From NCBI RefSeq assembly GCF_036507355.1, contig NZ_AP027877.1: 64,000 nucleotides of DNA. The stretch is one strand, 5' to 3'. The notes below the pieces were generated by a model that was not told the origin of the DNA, ran no database searches, and worked only from the letters and a program-made list of their open reading frames with translations. Each line of letters begins with the position of its first letter. Within the stretch, counting starts at the first letter, position 1. This stretch comes from Escherichia coli (lineage in GTDB: Bacteria; Pseudomonadota; Gammaproteobacteria; Enterobacterales; Enterobacteriaceae). A program made the translations under genes and the position numbers. Below are positions 8,126 to 51,746 of this stretch, piece by piece.

Positions 8126-8829
8126 AGGTCGCTCACATCCTTAAGCGTTACCGGGCATTCAGGCTGGACAGTTAATGGTTGCCAGGGAAGCGTGGCATAG
8201 AAACGATCGCTTCCCGCTGCTAGCTCTTCGAACATATGACTCCTGGCGCTATCGTATTTGTACAGGGTTAGCGCCTCGCGTAGCGAAGTGTTGTCTTCGC
8301 ACTGAGAAGATTGCCAGTAGAGACGCCCTAGTGAATAGGCAGAAAAATAGTGCATCCAGCTGTGATAGTAATGGTGAGCTCGTACATAGACGCGCGATTG
8401 CAGCCATAAACTCTCGTCTTCCGTCAGCCACTTGTTGAGCACACCAACCCGTGATAAAAAACCCATCCGCACATAATCCCAGGCTTTGATTCCCCCTTCC
8501 CCACAACACATAGCGGTTTGGGCAACGAACTGGGTATAAATCAACCCTCTCTCCGAGCCACCAGCAATTAATGCTTTCCACTCTTCAGGGGAAGAGCGAT
8601 GCCATGTCAGATATAAGCCAGCTAAATCATTGGCATGACCATCATCAGTCATCTGATAAATAGTCTGAATTAAATCATCACGATTATTTATTCCCCAGGA
8701 TGATGAGAGATCGAATTCTTTTATCCCGGTATACATTTTTGGCGAGTCATGCGCGGGTTTGCAACCCTGATTAAGTATTTCCATGGGCGCAGAAAGCGCA
8801 AAAAGAAGATATTGTTCTTCCTTATTCAT
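8122..8829 (-). CDS. ybeU: DUF1266-like protein, function unknown
   Basis: 235 aa; paralogue of ybeR with shared motif [20 protein letters not shown]. Confidence 0.85.
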
Positions 8830-8930
8830 TTGTTAATAATCCCTTAAGTGCATTAACTGACTACTTTTTTATTATTGATGAGTATAAACTTGACGCTTTC
8901 AAAATAAAAAGAAAATCGAAACATTCACAC

Positions 8931-9485
8931 ATGAATAAAAAATTAATGTATATATTCGCAATTTTTATAGTTGCAGCAATTACCTGTATTAGCCAACCCA
9001 AGAAAACGACGTTGCGTGATAAAGCCATGGTGAATTATGCCTTTGATTATTTAAGCTCACCGGGCAGTCTTCCATTCACCACGGCAGCCACGGAGCTTTC
9101 CGCGATTCATGGTCACTCAACGTCGCAATATCGCCTTGGAGAATTTTATCTTCATGGTAGCGACGGTAAACCACTGGATTATACACAGGCGAGATACTGG
9201 TATGAGCAATCAGCGGAACAGGAAAATCCACGCGCGCAAAGTAAACTGGGGTGGATCTACCTCAAAGGTCTGGGGGTCAAACCCGACACCCGTAAAGCAA
9301 TTCTCTGGTATAAGGAAGCAGCTGAACAAGGGTATGCTCATGCTCAATATACTTTAGGTTTGATCTACAGAAATGGCTCAGGTATTAATGTTAACCATTA
9401 TGAATCTCAAAAATGGTTAAAACTGGCCGCCAAACAACATTACAAAAATGCGGAAAGATTACTTGCCGGGCTTCCCGCACATTAA
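8931..9485 (+). CDS. ybeT: Sel1-repeat (TPR-like) protein with N-terminal hydrophobic segment
   Basis: 184 aa; N-terminal [21 protein letters not shown]; Sel1-like repeats (AQ..LG..Y..G.GV); AT-rich coding sequence. Confidence 0.85.
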
Positions 9486-10922: not shown

Positions 10923-11626
10923 AGGTCGCTCATATCCTTAAGCGTTTCCGGGCATGTGGGGTAGTCAGCCAGTGGTTGCCAGGGTAAGGTCGCGTAATAT
11001 GCATCGTCACTGGCAAATAATTGATAAAACATATCATTGCCGGAATCGTCGTATTCTTTACGCGCTAAGAATTCACGTAATAAAGGCAGATTATCATCTT
11101 CGGGAGACTGCCAATATTGCCGACCAAAGGTATAACCGGCAAAGTATTGCCGCCAGTTACTATAATAACGTAGAGCCCGTAGATGAATACGCGACTGGAT
11201 CCATAGACTTTCTTCTTCACTCAACCAGTTATTAAGTACGCCCATTCGACTTAAAAAACCCATCCGGACATAATCCCATGCTTTAATTCCTCCCTCACCA
11301 CAGCATTCGGCTGTGCTGGCGACAAATTGCGCATAAGCCTGACCTTGCTCATTTAATTCAGCAAGATAGTCACGCCATTCACATGGAGAATAACGAAACC
11401 AGCGGTGATAAAACCCTGCCAACCGAGCGGCATGACCGTTATCGATCATTCGGTGAATTGTGCGCAGCAGGTCATCACGGTCATCAATTCCCCAGGAGGA
11501 AGAAAGGTCAAAAAAGCATGTACCTAAATACATTTTGGGGGATGAATGCGAAGGTAAACAGCATTCATTGCGTATTTCCATCGGAGTGGAAAGTGCAAAC
11601 AATATTTTTTGCGACTCCATGTCCAT
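10919..11626 (-). CDS. ybeR: DUF1266-like protein, function unknown, paralogue of ybeU
   Basis: 235 aa; same [20 protein letters not shown] motif as ybeU. Confidence 0.85.
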
Positions 11627-11783
11627 ATAATTTATCCTTAAACATTCATTTAATGAATGTAAACTACATTAGGAGGCTCATTTATTTATACTTTTCTGAC
11701 ACAACATAATACGCATAAAATAAGACTTACGCAAAAACGGAACACATAAAAATATAATATGTTTTATCTGCAACCATAAGGAA

Positions 11784-12767
11784 ATGATAATGATTTTTAC
11801 GTCAAGTTGCTGCGATAATTTGTCAATAGATGAGATTATCGAACGTGCTGAACAAGGCGATAGTGAGGCTCAATATATTGTTGGGTTTTATTATAATCGC
11901 GATAGCGCAATTGACTCTCCGGACGACGAAAAGGCCTTTTACTGGCTGAAGCTGGCCGCTGAGCAAGGTCATTGTGAAGCACAGTATTCCTTAGGGCAAA
12001 AGTATACCGAGGATAAAAGCCGTCATAAAGATAATGAGCAAGCCATCTTCTGGCTGAAAAAAGCTGCCCTACAAGGCCATACTTTCGCTTCCAACGCCCT
12101 TGGCTGGATACTGGATCGTGGAGAAGACCCCAACTATAAAGAAGCGGTTGCCTGGTATCAGATAGCCGCGGAGAGCGGAATGTCTTATGCGCAAAATAAT
12201 CTTGGGTGGATGTACAGAAATGGCAACGGAGTCGCACAAGACTATACGCTGGCATTTTTCTGGTACAAACAAGCTGCATTACAAGGCCATAGTGACGCGC
12301 AAAACAATCTGGCCGATCTTTATGAAGACGGAAAAGGCGTTGCTCAAAACGAGACACTCGCCGCATTCTGGTATTTGAAAAGCGCACAGCAGGGTAATCG
12401 GCATGCTCAGTTTCAAATTGCATGGGATTATAACGCTGGCGAAGGGGTGGACCAGGACTATAAGCAAGCGATGTACTGGTATCTGAAGGCTGCCGCTCAG
12501 GGGAGCGTCGGCGCTTACGTCAACATCGGTTATATGTATAAACACGGACAAGGCGTTGAGAAAGATTATCAGGCTGCCTTTGAATGGTTTACGAAAGCCG
12601 CTGAATGCAATGACGCCACTGCCTGGTATAACCTGGCCATTATGTATCACTACGGAGAAGGAAGACCTGTCGATCTCCGACAGGCTCTCGACCTGTATCG
12701 TAAAGTTCAGTCATCCGGAACCAGAGATGTCAGTCAGGAAATTCGTGAGACTGAAGATTTACTGTAG
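11784..12767 (+). CDS. ybeQ: Sel1-repeat (TPR-like) protein
   Basis: 327 aa; at least seven Sel1-like repeats (AQ..LG..Y..G.GV..D...A..W); Cys-rich N-terminus. Confidence 0.85.
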   Translation: MIMIFTSSCCDNLSIDEIIERAEQGDSEAQYIVGFYYNRDSAIDSPDDEKAFYWLKLAAEQGHCEAQYSLGQKYTEDKSRHKDNEQAIFWLKKAALQGHTFASNALGWILDRGEDPNYKEAVAWYQIAAESGMSYAQNNLGWMYRNGNGVAQDYTLAFFWYKQAALQGHSDAQNNLADLYEDGKGVAQNETLAAFWYLKSAQQGNRHAQFQIAWDYNAGEGVDQDYKQAMYWYLKAAAQGSVGAYVNIGYMYKHGQGVEKDYQAAFEWFTKAAECNDATAWYNLAIMYHYGEGRPVDLRQALDLYRKVQSSGTRDVSQEIRETEDLL

Positions 12768-26702: not shown

Positions 26703-27114
26703 TTTCATACCTCAATGGCCCAATTTACACTGGGTCATTACTCATAACACCTGCTAATGCTTTACATCTCCTTCGCGTTTGTATATTTTCTTTATCACTT
26801 GCAGAAATGCGATGCTACGCCTTGCTCCGTAACTCACCCCATTGATTAACTTATTGAAATAGTTGATTATGATGAGCAAAAGCGTTCCGTTCCAATTAGA
26901 CATAAGATTATTGTAATTTTTTTAAATATTATTTTTCCATGAATAAAATTGGAGTAAGTGCGTGGATAGTAATAATTAAATTGAATCCTGTTTAAGCAGA
27001 AAATCGTCAGAAGGTAAACCACAAATATTTACAACCTTACGAAATATTGATCTTAATCTTCTGACTATTTTTGAAGCTGTATATGTACATAAAGGGATCG
27101 TTAATGCAGCGAAA

Positions 27115-27915
27115 GTGCTTAATCTGACCCCCTCGGCAATCAGTCAGTCTATTCAGAAACTGCGCGTTATATTCCCTGACCCATTGTTTATTCGCAAAGG
27201 CCAAGGTGTCACTCCTACCGCATTTGCGATGCATCTACATGAGTATATCAGTCAGGGCCTTGAGTCCATTCTTGGCGCGCTGGATATCGAAGGAAGCTAT
27301 GATAAGCAACGAACGATAACTATTGCGACCACCCCCTCGGTCGGAGCCCTGGTCCTTCCTGTCATTTATCGGGCGATTAAAACTCACTATCCGCAGCTTT
27401 TACTGCGCAACCCGCCCATCAGCGACGCGGAAAACCAACTCAGTCAGTTTCAAACCGATCTCATCATCGATAACATGTTTTGCACCAATCGTACGGTGCA
27501 ACATCATGTTCTGTTCACCGACAATATGGTGTTAATTTGCCGCGAGGGAAATCCACTACTCTCTTTAGAAGATGACAGAGAGACTATCGACAACGCTGCA
27601 CATGTACTCCTGTTACCGGAAGGACAAAATTTCAGCGTTCTGCGGCAGAGAATTCAAGAGATGTTTCCGGACCGGCAGATCAGCTTCACCAGCTACAACA
27701 TTTTGACAATCGCTGCACTGGTTGCCAACAGTGACATGTTAGCGATTATTCCCAGCCGTTTTTATAACCTGTTTAGCCGTTGCTGGCCGCTGGAAAAACT
27801 GCCTTTTCCGTCCTTAAATGAGGAGCAAATAGATTTCTCTATCCACTACAACAAATTCAGCCTGCGTGATCCCATCCTGCACGGAGTAATAGATGTTATC
27901 CGTAATGCATTTTGA
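27115..27915 (+). CDS. ybeF: LysR-family transcriptional regulator; N-terminus uncertain (HTH-coding sequence continues in frame upstream to an in-frame TAA at 26977..26979)
   Basis: ORF 27115..27915 (266 aa, GTG start); upstream in-frame sequence encodes the LysR HTH region ...TTLRNIDLNLLTIFEAVYVHKGIVNAAK. Confidence 0.6.
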   Translation: MLNLTPSAISQSIQKLRVIFPDPLFIRKGQGVTPTAFAMHLHEYISQGLESILGALDIEGSYDKQRTITIATTPSVGALVLPVIYRAIKTHYPQLLLRNPPISDAENQLSQFQTDLIIDNMFCTNRTVQHHVLFTDNMVLICREGNPLLSLEDDRETIDNAAHVLLLPEGQNFSVLRQRIQEMFPDRQISFTSYNILTIAALVANSDMLAIIPSRFYNLFSRCWPLEKLPFPSLNEEQIDFSIHYNKFSLRDPILHGVIDVIRNAF

Positions 27916-33888: not shown

Positions 33889-34569
33889 TCACCCACTGTG
33901 GTATATGCGTTGCGGTCTGCCAACTTTGCCGTGAACAATTTCAGCAATAATCAGATGGCGGCTGGCGCAATATTCAAGATAACGCCTGGCAGTGGTGCGG
34001 CTGATGGTCAGTGCCTGCGCCACTGTTTCTGCCGTATGTTGCACACCCGGCTCTTTGAACAGTTTTCGCACCGCGTTTAGCGTCAAAGGGTCAATGCCGG
34101 TCGGCAGTTCGTCTTTGGGTTCACCGCGAGCATAGGCATTAAACATCTCATCAATTTGCTTCTGGCTGGCGCTATCAATACTTTCCAGCATATGTTTACG
34201 CTGGCGGAAACGGGTTAGCGTTTGCCCCAGCCGTTCATAGGCAATTGGCTTAATGAGATAATCAAATACACCACAACGTACGGCTTCAGACACCGTTTCC
34301 ATATCGCTGGCTGCAGTGGTAAACACCACGTCGCCGGGATAATGCGCCTGCACCAGTTCATGCAGTAAATTAATCCCTCTACCGTCAGGAAGATAGTTAT
34401 CGAGCAAGATTAGCCCCGGCTTAAAACGCTCGATCATCATTCGGGCCTGCGCCAGGTTTCCCGCCAGTAATATCTGACTGAATCCGGGAATGTGACGAAT
34501 ATATTCCGCATGCATCTCTGCCAGCGGCGTTTCGTCCTCAACGATCAATAGGGTTAATGGAGCTGTCAT
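33889..34569 (-). CDS. dpiA: two-component response regulator DpiA (CitB)
   Basis: 226 aa; receiver domain LTLLIVEDE; C-terminal HTH. Confidence 0.9.
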   Translation of the reverse strand: MTAPLTLLIVEDETPLAEMHAEYIRHIPGFSQILLAGNLAQARMMIERFKPGLILLDNYLPDGRGINLLHELVQAHYPGDVVFTTAASDMETVSEAVRCGVFDYLIKPIAYERLGQTLTRFRQRKHMLESIDSASQKQIDEMFNAYARGEPKDELPTGIDPLTLNAVRKLFKEPGVQHTAETVAQALTISRTTARRYLEYCASRHLIIAEIVHGKVGRPQRIYHSG

Positions 34570-36196
34570 TAGGTTTCACTTTCGGAATATAGATTGAAAA
34601 TAAGGTACCGCAGGGATCATTATCTTCGAGAGTGATAACACCACCGCAGCGCGTTACGTAGCTGGCAATCAAGTACAACCCAATGCCATGTTCACCGGGC
34701 TCGTCAGCACGCGTACTGACCCCCTGCTCAAATATTTTGTCTCGTAGAGACTCTGGAACGCCGCAGCCCTGATCGGCGACTTCAATCACCACATCATCGC
34801 CTTCATCGCTGAGGAATAATTCAACGATCTTGTTTCCTTCATCGCTACGCAGGCTGGCTTCGAAGGCGTTATCAAGTAAATTTCCCACAATGGCGGCAAA
34901 CTCGGTGCTATCCAGTCCTGGCGGCAGTTGCGAAAGCTGGCTACCGGGGACGATGATCATTTTTAGCCCCAGTTCGCGGGCGCGCTGCACTTTACCAAAA
35001 AGCAGCCCCGCCACCTGGCGATCGGCAAACGCCTCGCGCAGGCTGTCAATAAGCTGTTGCTGGGCCTGAGACTCCCCCTGCACCATCGCCAGCACGCGAT
35101 CATACTCTTTCATCTGCAACAGACCATTGAGCGTCGACATCCAATTGAGATGCTCGTGTCGCAATGTACGAAGGCTCTCGACGTATTGTTTTATTTGCGT
35201 CAGTTGCGCATTGAGGGTGGAAATTTCGTCTTTACTACGAAAGCTGATAATGGCCCCCAGCAAATCATCACCTGAACGAATAGCTTCCCGATTGGCAATA
35301 ACGCTCAGACCGTTAAAGTTAGCCACCACATCCTGACGTTTTTCATCAATCTGTTCGGTAAAGAAATCGGCGGGCCTGACCACTTCAGCAATGGGTTTAC
35401 CCAACCATTGCCGTCCGGGGGAACTCAGCCCCAGCATCTTTCTTGCGTTACGATTGATGGCGGTAATGTAACCGTGCGGATCCACCGCAATCAGCCCTTC
35501 ATAAACCGAACTAAACAGCGCCTCTTGCTGACGGACCACGCGTGCGATTTGCTTTGGCTCCATGCCCATCATCTGCCGACGGATATGCGCGGCCAGGAAC
35601 CACGACAGCAACATCAGAATCCCTAACAGCACGACAAACACACCTGCCATCGGTAATAAAAACTCAGCCCGCCAGCTATCGATTTTACTCACCAGGTAGC
35701 CAATCGACACCACGCCGATGACTTTTCCATCGTCATCAAAGATTGGCGTTTTGGCGCGCATCGCCATACCCATTGACCCTTTCCCGGTAATGAAGTAGCT
35801 CTCCCCTTTCTCCAGCGCGCCCTGTTTGGTGAACTGCATAGGATAACCAATTTTCTCCGGATTAGGATGGTAAAGGCGGATCGAGTGCCGGTCGCCAATC
35901 ACCACATAATCAAAATCGGTATCTCTTTGTAATTTGTTAGCGATGGTCGCCAGCCGTTTGTAGTCACGCGTTTTCACCGTAGAGATGACACTGTCATTGG
36001 AGGCAATAATTTTCGCCTGATTCATTGCCATGTCGCGTACATGAAGCGTTAAATAGTCCTCAAAACTGGCCGTAAAATATTGCGCCAGGGCTGCAATGAC
36101 AAATATTGAGAACACCAGAATCAGCAAAAAGATACGCAGCGGAAATGCCAGTCTTTGGAAAAATGCAAACTGTTTATTCTCGTTAAGCTGCAACAT
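34538..36196 (-). CDS. dpiB: sensor histidine kinase DpiB (CitA)
   Basis: ORF 34538..36256 trimmed to MLQLNENKQFAFF; two TM helices, periplasmic domain, H-box and ATPase motifs; 552 aa. Confidence 0.88.
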   Translation of the reverse strand: MLQLNENKQFAFFQRLAFPLRIFLLILVFSIFVIAALAQYFTASFEDYLTLHVRDMAMNQAKIIASNDSVISTVKTRDYKRLATIANKLQRDTDFDYVVIGDRHSIRLYHPNPEKIGYPMQFTKQGALEKGESYFITGKGSMGMAMRAKTPIFDDDGKVIGVVSIGYLVSKIDSWRAEFLLPMAGVFVVLLGILMLLSWFLAAHIRRQMMGMEPKQIARVVRQQEALFSSVYEGLIAVDPHGYITAINRNARKMLGLSSPGRQWLGKPIAEVVRPADFFTEQIDEKRQDVVANFNGLSVIANREAIRSGDDLLGAIISFRSKDEISTLNAQLTQIKQYVESLRTLRHEHLNWMSTLNGLLQMKEYDRVLAMVQGESQAQQQLIDSLREAFADRQVAGLLFGKVQRARELGLKMIIVPGSQLSQLPPGLDSTEFAAIVGNLLDNAFEASLRSDEGNKIVELFLSDEGDDVVIEVADQGCGVPESLRDKIFEQGVSTRADEPGEHGIGLYLIASYVTRCGGVITLEDNDPCGTLFSIYIPKVKPNDSSINPIDR

Positions 36197-36575
36197 TGTT
36201 TTCCTTGCGGGTTGTCCCGAGCCTCTTTGACGGATGTAATTAAAATGTTGAATCAAAATACATAGATATTAATTATAATCGTGGCAAATTTTATTCATTA
36301 AATCAATTAAATCACTTAAACCTGCGGGTCATTTCGTAATTACATTAATTAAAAAACTTAAAACCATTAAATAAATAAAAAACCACTAACTCTATGTGAA
36401 ATAAATCAAAATTTCACGCCAAAATACTCCTTAGGATGTATAGCGAAAGGAGAAAAAGATATACCTCGATCACCCCCCTTTCTCCCAAGTGAAAATAAAA
36501 GGTTATCAGTTTGCAACATTGAACAACATTCGTTGCAAATCGATAACAACATGCACCTTCAGGATACTATTTATT
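36197..36575. promoter_or_regulatory. AT-rich divergent dpiB/citC control region with short direct repeats
   Basis: taaatcaattaaatcacttaaacc and repeated ttaaa/taaat units between divergent starts. Confidence 0.4.
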
Positions 36576-37634
36576 ATGTTCGGCAATGATATTTTCACCC
36601 GCGTAAAACGTTCAGAAAATAAAAAAATGGCGGAAATCGCCCAATTCCTGCATGAAAATGATTTGAGCGTTGACACCACAGTCGAAGTATTTATTACCGT
36701 AACCCGCGATGAAAAGCTTATCGCGTGCGGTGGAATTGCCGGAAATATTATTAAATGCGTTGCTATCAGTGAATCCGTTCGCGGTGAAGGACTGGCGCTG
36801 ACATTAGCCACTGAACTGATAAACCTCGCCTATGAGCGGCACAGCACGCATCTGTTTATTTATACCAAAACCGAATACGAGGCGCTGTTCCGCCAGTGCG
36901 GTTTTTCCACGTTGACCAGCGTACCAGGCGTGATGGTGCTGATGGAAAACAGCGCCACGCGATTGAAACGCTATGCCGAATCGCTGAAAAAATTTCGTCA
37001 TCCAGGGAACAAGATTGGCTGCATTGTGATGAACGCCAATCCCTTTACGAAGGGTCACCGTTATCTGATTCAACAGGCTGCGGCACAGTGCGACTGGTTG
37101 CATCTGTTTTTAGTCAAAGAAGATTCTTCACGCTTCCCCTATGAAGACCGGCTGGATCTGGTGTTAAAAGGCACCGCCGATATTCCACGCCTGACTGTGC
37201 ATCGCGGCTCCGAATACATCATCTCCCGCGCTACGTTCCCTTGCTACTTCATTAAAGAACAGAGCGTCATTAACCATTGTTACACCGAAATTGATTTGAA
37301 GATTTTCCGTCAGTACCTCGCTCCCGCGCTGGGTGTAACTCACCGCTTTGTCGGTACTGAACCCTTTTGTCGCGTTACCGCCCAGTACAACCAGGATATG
37401 CGCTACTGGCTGGAAACGCCGACTATCTCCGCACCGCCCATCGAACTGGTTGAAATTGAGCGGCTGCGTTACCAGGAGATGCCGATATCCGCTTCCCGGG
37501 TACGTCAACTGCTGGCGAAAAACGATCTCACGGCTATCGCGCCGCTGGTCCCTGCAGTCACGCTGCATTATTTGCAGAACCTGCTTGAGCACTCCCGCCA
37601 GGACGCGGCAGCTCGTCAAAAGACCCCCGCATGA
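36576..37634 (+). CDS. citC: [citrate (pro-3S)-lyase] ligase
   Basis: ORF 36489..37634 trimmed to ATG at 36576 (MFGNDIFTRVK); 352 aa. Confidence 0.9.
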   Translation: MFGNDIFTRVKRSENKKMAEIAQFLHENDLSVDTTVEVFITVTRDEKLIACGGIAGNIIKCVAISESVRGEGLALTLATELINLAYERHSTHLFIYTKTEYEALFRQCGFSTLTSVPGVMVLMENSATRLKRYAESLKKFRHPGNKIGCIVMNANPFTKGHRYLIQQAAAQCDWLHLFLVKEDSSRFPYEDRLDLVLKGTADIPRLTVHRGSEYIISRATFPCYFIKEQSVINHCYTEIDLKIFRQYLAPALGVTHRFVGTEPFCRVTAQYNQDMRYWLETPTISAPPIELVEIERLRYQEMPISASRVRQLLAKNDLTAIAPLVPAVTLHYLQNLLEHSRQDAAARQKTPA

Positions 37635-49742: not shown

Positions 49743-50489
49743 ATGTTAAAAAAGATACTTTTACTGGCTCTGCTTCCTGCAATCGCCTTCGCAGAGGAAC
49801 TTCCTGCTCCAGTAAAAGCGATTGAAAAACAGGGTATTACGATCATCAAAACGTTCGATGCCCCCGGAGGAATGAAAGGTTATCTCGGAAAGTATCAGGA
49901 TATGGGCGTCACCATCTACCTGACTCCAGATGGTAAGCACGCTATCTCTGGTTACATGTACAACGAGAAAGGTGAAAACCTGAGTAACACACTTATCGAA
50001 AAAGAAATTTACGCACCAGCCGGACGCGAAATGTGGCAACGGATGGAACAATCCCACTGGCTCCTCGACGGTAAAAAAGACGCGCCGGTCATTGTCTACG
50101 TCTTCGCCGATCCGTTCTGCCCATATTGTAAACAGTTCTGGCAGCAGGCGCGCCCGTGGGTAGATTCTGGCAAAGTACAGTTGAGAACATTGTTGGTTGG
50201 GGTTATCAAACCAGAAAGTCCGGCGACAGCCGCGGCAATTCTTGCCTCCAAAGATCCCGCAAAAACCTGGCAAGAATATGAAGCCTCTGGTGGCAAGCTT
50301 AAGCTAAACGTGCCTGCAAACGTAAGTACAGAGCAAATGAAAGTGTTAAGCGACAACGAGAAACTCATGGACGATCTGGGGGCAAATGTCACTCCGGCTA
50401 TCTATTACATGAGTAAGGAAAATACGCTGCAACAGGCCGTGGGGTTGCCCGATCAGAAAACGCTTAATATCATTATGGGAAATAAATAA
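49743..50489 (+). CDS. dsbG: periplasmic disulfide isomerase/reductase DsbG
   Basis: ORF 49683..50489 trimmed to [17 protein letters not shown] signal peptide; thioredoxin-like CPYC; 248 aa. Confidence 0.9.
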
Positions 50490-50697
50490 AAGGTAATTCA
50501 TGGATGGTTGAACTATATCCCTGCTTTTCAACCATCCTAAAAAAGCATGAATTGCTCGCTCTGCCCTAAGTGGCTGTGCTATTTTAGAAAAACTTAATCC
50601 TGAGTTAAGCAAAAAAACATAATCAATAAAAATATATACGCAAAAAACATTGATTAAGTGAATATATCATGGAAGAAAAATATAACCGGAGTAGTGT

Positions 50698-51600
50698 ATG
50701 ACCAATCTCTACGACTTGAAAAAGTTCGACTTAAATCTTCTTGTCATATTTGAGTGTATTTACCAGCATTTAAGCATTAGCAAAGCTGCTGAATCACTAT
50801 ATATCACCCCATCAGCCGTGAGCCAGTCGTTACAACGCTTACGTGCGCAATTTAATGACCCTTTATTCATTCGCTCAGGAAAAGGTATCGCGCCGACGAC
50901 AACAGGGTTAAATCTGCATCACCATCTTGAGAAAAATCTCAGAGGCCTTGAACAAACAATTAATATAGTCAATAAGTCCGAACTAAAGAAAAACTTTATT
51001 ATTCACGGCCCTCAGCTCATTTCTTGCTCTAATAATAGTATGCTGATCCGCTGCCTACGGCAAGATTCCTCTGTCGAGATTGAGTGCCATGATATCCTCA
51101 TGTCAGCAGAGAATGCTGAAGAACTGTTGGTTCACCGCAAAGCCGATCTGGTGATCACCCAAATGCCAGTGATCAGCCGTTCCGTCATTTGCATGCCATT
51201 GCATACGATTCGCAATACTCTAATTTGTAGTAATAGGCATCCACGAATTACTGACAATAGCACTTATGAACAAATTATGGCAGAAGAGTTCACCCAATTA
51301 ATATCTAAATCAGCAGGGGTTGATGATATTCAAATGGAAATAGACGAGAGATTTATGAATCGCAAAATTTCATTTCGTGGTTCCTCTTTGCTGACAATCA
51401 TTAATAGCATTGCAGTTACAGATTTACTGGGAATAGTCCCCTATGAACTTTATAACTCCCACCGTGACTTTCTTAATTTAAAAGAGATAAAACTAGAACA
51501 TCCGTTACCTTCAATAAAGCTTTACATTTCCTATAATAAATCTTCTTTAAACAATCTGGTGTTCTCCCGATTTATTGACCGTCTAAATGAGTGTTTTTGA
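50698..51600 (+). CDS. ybdO: LysR-family transcriptional regulator
   Basis: 300 aa; N-terminal HTH; AT-rich gene and upstream region. Confidence 0.85.
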   Translation: MTNLYDLKKFDLNLLVIFECIYQHLSISKAAESLYITPSAVSQSLQRLRAQFNDPLFIRSGKGIAPTTTGLNLHHHLEKNLRGLEQTINIVNKSELKKNFIIHGPQLISCSNNSMLIRCLRQDSSVEIECHDILMSAENAEELLVHRKADLVITQMPVISRSVICMPLHTIRNTLICSNRHPRITDNSTYEQIMAEEFTQLISKSAGVDDIQMEIDERFMNRKISFRGSSLLTIINSIAVTDLLGIVPYELYNSHRDFLNLKEIKLEHPLPSIKLYISYNKSSLNNLVFSRFIDRLNECF

Positions 51601-51746
51601 TATATAACTTCAGACAGCTACTATAACTTTCACCTATTTATTCACAGCGCGAATGAAAAATAAAACACTCTGCTTTTCAGTGTTTACTTTATAATTAACA
51701 GTCTTATCTCACTGATCACCCTGTAACGTTCAGAGAGCGTCTTCAG

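Follow-up and report, generated by a model that had tools for sequence, protein, structure and literature searches.

Conserved 9-bp direct-repeat arrays, probable DpiA operator units, in the divergent dpiB-citC control region of Escherichia coli

The stretch of Escherichia coli DNA analysed here (64,000 nucleotides of contig NZ_AP027877.1, assembly GCF_036507355.1; hereafter the window) carries two divergent sets of citrate genes. On the minus strand lie dpiB (citA; 34538-36196), coding for the citrate sensor histidine kinase, and dpiA (citB; 33889-34569), coding for a response regulator that binds DNA through an HTH_64 domain, while on the plus strand citC (36576-37634) is the first gene of citCDEFXGT. 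The RefSeq annotation and the family models gave the same identities, and these are the ones (dpiB, citC and DpiA) that a preliminary description of the region had named: DpiB scored 1226 bits and CitC 592 bits, and DpiA scored 520 bits against the NCBIfam DpiA equivalog and contained Response_reg and the Pfam HTH_64 'DpiA-like' domain (163 bits). By the family models, the locus itself thus encodes the cognate regulator, including its DpiA-like HTH domain. The start codons are an ATG at 36196 on the minus strand for dpiB and an ATG at 36576 for citC, so the intergenic control region between them spans 36197-36575, that is, 379 bp with a G+C content of 0.31. A longer CitC beginning at GTG 36489, as found in an EHEC annotation, was rejected as not being a conserved coding extension because its frame is broken by indels in Citrobacter and Salmonella. 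Several complete E. coli genomes match positions 36100-36700 at 100% identity; there, the RefSeq annotation at the match gives the gene order dcuC, dpiA, dpiB, citCDEFXGT, rna, rnk. The spacer was found in 5419 of 5426 complete genomes of this species. The spacer is very probably the common control region of two divergent units, dpiBA for the citrate sensor and regulator and citCDEFXGT for citrate lyase and the citrate carrier.

The preliminary description had characterized this spacer as about 380 bp of very low GC content with direct repeats, and both points hold. G+C is 0.23 between 36230 and 36425, and the minimum 200-bp G+C of the entire 64-kb window (0.235) is located in the dpiB-citC spacer. 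Both of the repeat strings quoted were found, taaatcaattaaatcacttaaacc at 36299-36322 and cattaaataaataaaaaacc at 36365-36384, and their order turned out to be far stricter than had been described. We evaluated the significance of the repeats with dinucleotide-preserving shuffles of the spacer. TTAAA was observed 7 times versus 2.85 expected (P = 0.012), ATTAAA 5 times versus 1.05 (P = 0.0015) and TTAAA[ACT]C 4 times versus 0.48 (P = 0.0005). Orientation is biased as well, with seven TTAAA on the citC strand and zero TTTAA in reverse. All but one of the seven TTAAA cores fall into two triplets with an exact spacing of 9 bp, at 36298/36307/36316 and 36349/36358/36367. At least one triplet at this phasing arose with P = 1e-4 to 3e-4 in 20,000 shuffles of either the spacer or its AT-rich core, and two such triplets arose in 0 of 20,000 dinucleotide-preserving shuffles. 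When periods of 5 to 15 bp were tested, TTAAA pairs were found at 9 bp and at none of the others. Furthermore, on both strands of the 64-kb window (128 kb scanned) these were the sole arrays of at least three 9-bp-phased T[TA]AA[AG] units.

We refer to the two arrays, both on the plus strand and both recognized by their phasing and conservation, as A and B. Array A (36296-36322) consists of three 9-bp direct-repeat units, CATTAAATC, AATTAAATC and ACTTAAACC. Array B (36338-36382) has five 9-bp-phased units: a core of three strict units at 36347-36373 (AATTAAAAA, ACTTAAAAC and CATTAAATA), flanked by a degenerate AATTACATT on its 5' side and by AATAAAAAA on its 3' side. The first of these units reads TTACA (degenerate) in E. 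coli and TTAAA in Citrobacter and Salmonella, and the number of units in array B is 4 or 5, depending on the genus. The two arrays share a unit consensus, (A/C)(A/C)TTAAA(A/T)(C/A), as well as an AAAACCA signature, and from the start of array A to the start of array B there are 42 bp, or four helical turns.

The arrays stand out from the rest of the spacer in their conservation. We aligned the region from 13 taxa, ranging from Escherichia, Citrobacter and Salmonella to Hafnia and Buttiauxella, with a mean column identity of 68%. The sequence TTAAATCAATTAAA of array A (36298-36311) is invariant in all 13, from Escherichia to Hafnia and Buttiauxella, as is TAATTAA.AAA.T.AAAACCAT.AA in array B, while the flanking spacers diverge. 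Among 34 distinct orthologous sequences, the information content of the arrays was 1.57 bits per position, versus 0.38-0.67 for the adjacent spacers (0.67 for the inter-array spacer and 0.38 for the equally AT-rich positions 36251-36277), making the arrays the best-conserved part of the intergenic region. In the same set of sequences the three units of array A had 1.78, 1.78 and 1.50 bits per position and the top units of array B, B1 and B2, had 1.79 and 1.81. The most conserved units are therefore A1, A2, B1 and B2 (1.78-1.81 bits), the two strongest in each array.

Next to array B lies what appears to be the citC promoter. A CRP-like site, TGTGAAATAAATCAAA (36395-36410), agrees with the consensus at 9 of 10 positions, that is, it has one mismatch to TGTGA-N6-TCACA, and within it TGTGAAATA..TCAA.A is invariant in the 13 taxa. 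Scanning species-representative genomes for CitC yielded 80 loci, about 50 of them with a divergent dpiB and a spacer of 305-556 bp. A CRP-like site of this type was present in 61 of 78 scanned citC upstream regions, and in 55 of these 61 orthologues the start of TGTGA was followed, at a distance of exactly 37 bp, by a TAnnAT hexamer. Based on this fixed spacing, we predict that the hexamer, TAGGAT in E. coli (36432-36437, plus strand) and TACGAT in most others, is the -10 element of citC. With TAnnAT at +37, the centre of the CRP site would be at -41.5, the geometry of a class II CRP promoter, which in turn would put the citC start near 36444 and give a 5'UTR of ~132 nt. Relative to that putative start, array B would extend from ~-107 to -63 and array A from ~-149 to -123. 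Distances to the CRP-like TGTGA are fixed: 97 and 88 bp for the units of array A in 33 loci, and 55, 46, 37 and 28 bp for those of array B, whose signature A[AT]CCATWAA precedes TGTGA by exactly 33 bp in the majority of loci in which both motifs were found.

Overlapping the predicted -10 is a NarL 7-2-7-like sequence, TACTCCTTAGGATGTA (36425-36440), which has 2 mismatches to TACYYMTNNAKRRGTA and in which TAC.CC.TA.GAT is invariant in the 13 taxa. By count, matches to either motif are at chance level in the 64-kb window, with 3 observed versus 1.9 expected for the CRP consensus and 3 versus 2.7 for the NarL 7-2-7 (inverted TACYYMT heptamers, 2 bp apart). Since these counts are not significant, our reading of the two elements is based on their invariance, their fixed position and published regulation, namely the reported CRP control of cit promoters (PMC2735749, PMC12405535) and the reported inhibition of the citC promoter by nitrate/NarL (PMC12405535). 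A simple scan of the spacer for sigma-70 consensus promoters or terminators gave 0 hits, which fits activator-dependent promoters yet is uninformative.

We then compared loci with other gene arrangements. Arrays oriented towards citC are also found in Providencia, Moellerella, Pragia, Leminorella, Limnobaculum, Erwinia, Pantoea, Edwardsiella and Serratia, with one Serratia locus (L047) having an additional inverted array near citC. Throughout the Enterobacterales the arrays keep their sequence, their position and their citC-ward orientation. The combination of array, CRP-like site and -10 is retained upstream of citC in Serratia, where the divergent gene is dpiA alone, and that of array, CRP-like site and TAnnAT is retained where citC follows a co-directional dcuC-like transporter gene. 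This persistence of the module in other gene arrangements indicates that array B belongs to the citC promoter. The co-directional dcuC-like/citC loci, which are without any divergent promoter, have a single short array. Where neither dpiB nor dpiA is divergent from citC, array A is missing; it probably goes with the divergent promoter of dpiBA.

Three further blocks of the spacer are conserved. Block 1, TGTAATTAAAATGTTG (36235-36250), is an ArcA-like direct repeat and block 2, ATCGTnnCAnATT, is at 36278-36290; both have invariant positions in the 13 taxa. Their distances from the CRP-like TGTGA are also fixed, at 160 bp for block 1 (TGTAAnnAAnnTGTT) in 31 loci and at 117 bp for block 2 (ATCGTnnCAnAT) in 34 of the 34 loci where it was found. 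Between ~36235 and 36440 the 13-taxon alignment has zero indels between its columns. A conserved core of roughly 200 bp, length-invariant across genera, thus carries the two arrays together with blocks 1 and 2. Block 7, GnAAAnAAAAnGTTAT...TTGC...CAACA (36491-36528, plus strand), is A-rich and conserved and falls in the predicted citC 5'UTR. Several known motifs were considered for these blocks and rejected. As an ArcA box (TGTTA direct repeats in an 11-bp register) block 1 has 2 mismatches, a quality of match seen 48 times in the window versus 46 expected, and neither citC nor dpiB is mentioned in the text or the examined supplements of an ArcA ChIP-seq study. For blocks 1 and 7, sites for sigma-54, FNR and IHF were set aside on inspection of the alignment by eye, the GG, TTGAT or TTR positions they need not being conserved.

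On the dpiB side, the leader contains a 12-nt perfect complement, CCGTCAAAGAGG (36222-36233, minus strand), to the seed of the small RNA ChiX/SroB, whose sequence we verified as Rfam RF00368. For this reading we use the 12-nt perfect seed complement alone, as the energy of the ChiX-leader duplex (RNAduplex, -30.2 kcal/mol versus a shuffle mean of -23, sd 3.8) is uninformative. The complement fits reported small-RNA control of DpiA/DpiB, which the title of Mandin and Gottesman 2009 ascribes to RybC. It would place the dpiB transcription start at or above 36234, and hence array A within ~90 bp upstream of that start.

We also considered whether the spacer encodes a structured RNA with a regulatory role, be it a riboswitch, a leader or a small RNA. 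This was rejected, there being no Rfam match in the spacer at E <= 1 and no conserved pairing in the predicted citC 5'UTR, where RNAalifold returned 0 pairs for 15 orthologous 5'UTRs. An inverted repeat at 36502-36547 (16-nt arms, 88% complementary, 14-nt loop) is specific to Escherichia: its right arm is not conserved outside this genus in the 13-taxon alignment, and it is only marginally stable (folding z-scores of -1.4 and -1.8). Read on the minus strand, this inverted repeat is followed by a U-rich run, where nog1, a published antisense ORF (36811 to 36506; PMC4683798), has its 3' end.

Published work on the locus points in the same direction as the arrays. The preliminary description took control of the cit genes by DpiA as established, and this is well founded. 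Binding of DpiA/CitB at the dpiB-citC spacer is recorded in RegulonDB/EcoCyc, curated from Yamamoto 2008 (PMC6094552, PMC12405535). A 2025 biosensor study used the EcoCyc DpiA sites in the spacer to design truncations of the Citrobacter rodentium citC promoter, PcitC (PMC12405535). The construct described as 'lacking DpiA operator sites' (DTR305) lost its citrate response, and deleting the heterologous dpiAB genes alone did not cause such a loss (PMC12405535). We mapped the DTR305_Fwd primer to 36383-36410 of the window with 3 mismatches, and it matches four other Citrobacter loci exactly; the DTR304 primer had no match among the fetched loci, a set that does not include C. rodentium itself. 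From the position of DTR305_Fwd it follows that the truncation takes away the repeat-bearing part of the spacer, all of which is on the dpiB side of 36383. The construct begins directly after unit B4 (which ends at 36382) and retains the CRP-like site and the -10. It also deletes blocks 1 and 2, and so does not isolate the arrays. The promoter deletion that the preliminary description had proposed has in effect been carried out in this way, and DpiA binding to the fragment, the absence of which would have spoken against its reading, is reported in the literature as curated.

Taken together, the unit grammar, the conservation, the geometry, the precedent in the regulator family and the published truncation make it likely that the repeats are operator units for DpiA. 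The earlier suggestion of candidate DpiA operator half-sites therefore stands with respect to the operator and falls with respect to the half-sites: conservation, geometry and the literature favour an operator, and the repeats are tandem and direct, three to five per array, and not inverted. A single bidirectional promoter, as had also been suggested, does not fit either. The region looks like two separate divergent promoters that lie roughly 200 bp from each other and enclose the arrays, probably as a shared upstream activator region.

We propose that the arrays of 9-bp units serve as docking sites for the phosphorylated CitB-family regulator DpiA. The citC promoter would consist of cAMP-CRP bound at 36395-36410 and a weak -10, TAGGAT, and a head-to-tail oligomer of DpiA~P on array B, together with CRP at -41.5, would recruit RNA polymerase to citC. 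NarL binding over the -10 would block citC transcription when nitrate is present. Array A would most likely provide positive feedback on dpiBA, via DpiA or possibly via its paralogue DcuR. We infer the exact DpiA contacts, the transcription starts and the assignment of arrays to regulators. More speculatively, and with considerable doubt, 36235-36437 may assemble a single stereospecific, higher-order complex of CRP with a head-to-tail filament of DpiA (possibly plus DcuR) that activates both promoters simultaneously and, separately, block 7 may be a hitherto undescribed site of post-transcriptional control.

Another regulator of the same family could be the one that binds. The repeats, or array A specifically, would then be DcuR sites through which a DcuS/DcuR cascade acts on dpiBA, with DpiA using only array B or some other sequence. 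DcuR is of the same regulator family (the DcuR model gives DpiA a score of 135 bits), and the position of array A on the dpiB side, along with its loss where citC lacks a divergent dpiB or dpiA, would suit such a cascade. In addition, Scheu, in a 2012 abstract, reportedly places a DcuR site upstream of citAB and, if so, some of the repeats, array A most likely, may be DcuR's. Against this, arrays A and B are alike in both unit consensus and AAAACCA signature, and the EcoCyc 'DpiA operator sites' fall in the array segment. We consider this alternative somewhat unlikely, and DpiA operator units remain our preferred reading of both arrays. It is improbable that the repeats are generic AT-rich sequence bound by nucleoid proteins (H-NS, Fis, IHF) or acting as curved DNA or an UP element rather than specific operators. 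The spacer is indeed the lowest-G+C stretch of the window, its A-tract-rich sequence is typical of H-NS targets and our scan found it to be without a consensus promoter. However, AT-richness alone predicts neither base invariance across genera nor a 9-bp register, a single orientation and a fixed spacing to the CRP site. Moreover, the equally AT-rich stretch at 36251-36277 is poorly conserved, and the remaining low-G+C islands of the window contain no such 9-bp arrays. Finally, neutral replication slippage or local duplication without function can create tandem short repeats and might account for the varying unit number of array B, but it is effectively refuted by the order-wide conservation of sequence and position while neighbouring bases drift.

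In E. coli and related bacteria the spacer decides the onset of anaerobic citrate fermentation by bringing together signals from citrate, cAMP and nitrate. DpiA, in addition, connects beta-lactam stress with the SOS response. The citC promoter already serves as a gut biosensor, and the unit grammar together with the fixed-spacing map would aid the design of cleaner citrate sensors, the prediction of DpiA targets in other genomes and the reading of promoter mutations. Because DpiA/CitB binding to the dpiB-citC spacer is published and curated, the finding as such was already known, and because DpiA control of the spacer and binding to it are established, current understanding is unchanged. What may be new is the 9-bp grammar in its explicit form, the architecture of invariant length and the three conserved blocks (1, 2 and 7); the grammar, spacing and conservation may or may not have been described already.

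The closest comparison is with the CitB/DpiA binding region of Yamamoto 2008 in E. coli itself. It concerns the same locus and the same regulator, and its sites, like the arrays, are on the dpiB side of 36383. The arrays and this binding region are probably the same object. In Klebsiella pneumoniae, CitB is described as binding A+T-rich targets between divergent citrate-fermentation operons and acting with cAMP-CRP (PMC2735749). The CitB sites in the Klebsiella citS-citC control region (Meyer, Dimroth and Bott 1997, 2001), compared here by their description, are thus those of a homologous CitB-family regulator; the divergent partner of citC is citS-oadGAB-citAB in Klebsiella and dpiBA in E. 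coli.

A more distant member of the CitB family, MaeR of Lactobacillus casei, protects three tandem TTATT(A/T)AA repeats at the mae promoter, of which repeats 1 and 2, 1 bp apart and hence of 9-bp period, dominate binding (PMC5457438). The E. coli arrays resemble this operator in being tandem, direct and AT-rich with three repeats per site, and the two dominant MaeR repeats are mirrored by the two strongly conserved units of each E. coli array. When the reverse complement of the MaeR repeat, TT(A/T)AATAA, is set against the E. coli units, TTAAATAA agrees at 8 of 8 positions and TTAAATCA at 7 of 8; over six E. coli units the agreement is 5 to 8 of 8, by eye and with MaeR as a distant relative. 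MaeR differs in belonging to another phylum, in responding to malate and in being another regulator, and the E. coli spacer, unlike the MaeR operator, contains a pair of arrays with as many as five units and also a coupled CRP site. In this last respect it is similar to class III promoters, where an activator works together with CRP in a class II position. There, too, the CRP-like site is centred 41.5 bp upstream of the start, which for citC is the putative one, and a second activator is bound farther upstream in fixed helical phasing, as is predicted here from the sequence for DpiA on array B.

The TTAAA arrays upstream of citC were also found in other gene arrangements. In Serratia, a 5-unit array of the 9-bp direct repeat, the candidate DpiA operator, is present in all five loci (L047, L054, L063, L081 and L043). 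At L047, the only one of these in which open reading frames were read, dpiA rather than dpiB is divergent from citC, dpiB is absent, and an additional 3-unit array lies in inverted orientation ~97 bp upstream of citC. At three further loci (L031, L032 and L034), the divergent dpiB is replaced by a co-directional dcuC-like transporter gene that precedes citC; these loci keep a shortened TTAAA array, the TGTGA-N6-TCA site and the TAnnAT module, with a citC 5'UTR of ~37-50 nt. Two of the assemblies recovered in the CitC scan are probably contaminated or mislabelled. The L034 contig, labelled 'Chryseobacterium sp. 18061', bears an enterobacterial citC region with the promoter layout of Citrobacter sp. 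18056, and a 484-bp contig labelled 'Terrisporobacter mayombei' (L070) encodes a CitC with 99% identity to that of E. coli. Within the window, five other stretches have a G+C content below 0.32 over 200 bp (8751-9060, 11551-11880, 26781-27120, 50451-50810 and 51351-51720), and none of the five carries a 9-bp-phased TTAAA array.

Two invariant blocks stand at fixed distances from the CRP-like site: block 1 (36235-36250, TGTAAnnAAnnTGTT) at 160 bp and block 2 (36278-36290, ATCGTnnCAnATT) at 117 bp. Block 1, which is present also in loci without dpiB, resembles an ArcA box, with neither statistical nor ChIP support for ArcA. A third, A-rich block (block 7, 36491-36528, GnAAAnAAAAnGTTAT...TTGC...CAACA) lies within the predicted citC 5'UTR and is kept from Escherichia through to Hafnia and Buttiauxella; it is non-coding, and a search for RNA pairing within it found none that is conserved.

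The start of citC is placed at GTG 36489 (381 aa) in the EHEC annotation, whereas RefSeq places it at ATG 36576 (352 aa); the reading frame of the intervening 29-codon extension is not conserved in either Citrobacter or Salmonella. A 101-aa open reading frame with a GTG start (36506-36811, minus strand) overlaps the beginning of citC in antisense; it matches the overlapping gene nog1 published for EHEC (PMC4683798), and its 3' end enters the spacer. An inverted repeat at 36502-36547 (16-nt arms, GTTATCAGTTTGCAAC / GTTGCAAATCGATAAC) is followed on the minus strand by CUUUUAUUUUC, and together they resemble a terminator for nog1. The folding z-scores of the repeat are only -1.4 and -1.8, and conservation of its right arm is limited to Escherichia.

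On the dpiB side, the minus strand carries at 36222-36233 a 12-nt sequence, CCGTCAAAGAGG, that is perfectly complementary to the small RNA ChiX/SroB (Rfam RF00368). Since this complement lies within the dpiB leader, dpiB transcription would start at or above 36234. DpiA/DpiB are reportedly controlled by RybC, and the complementarity is consistent with such control.
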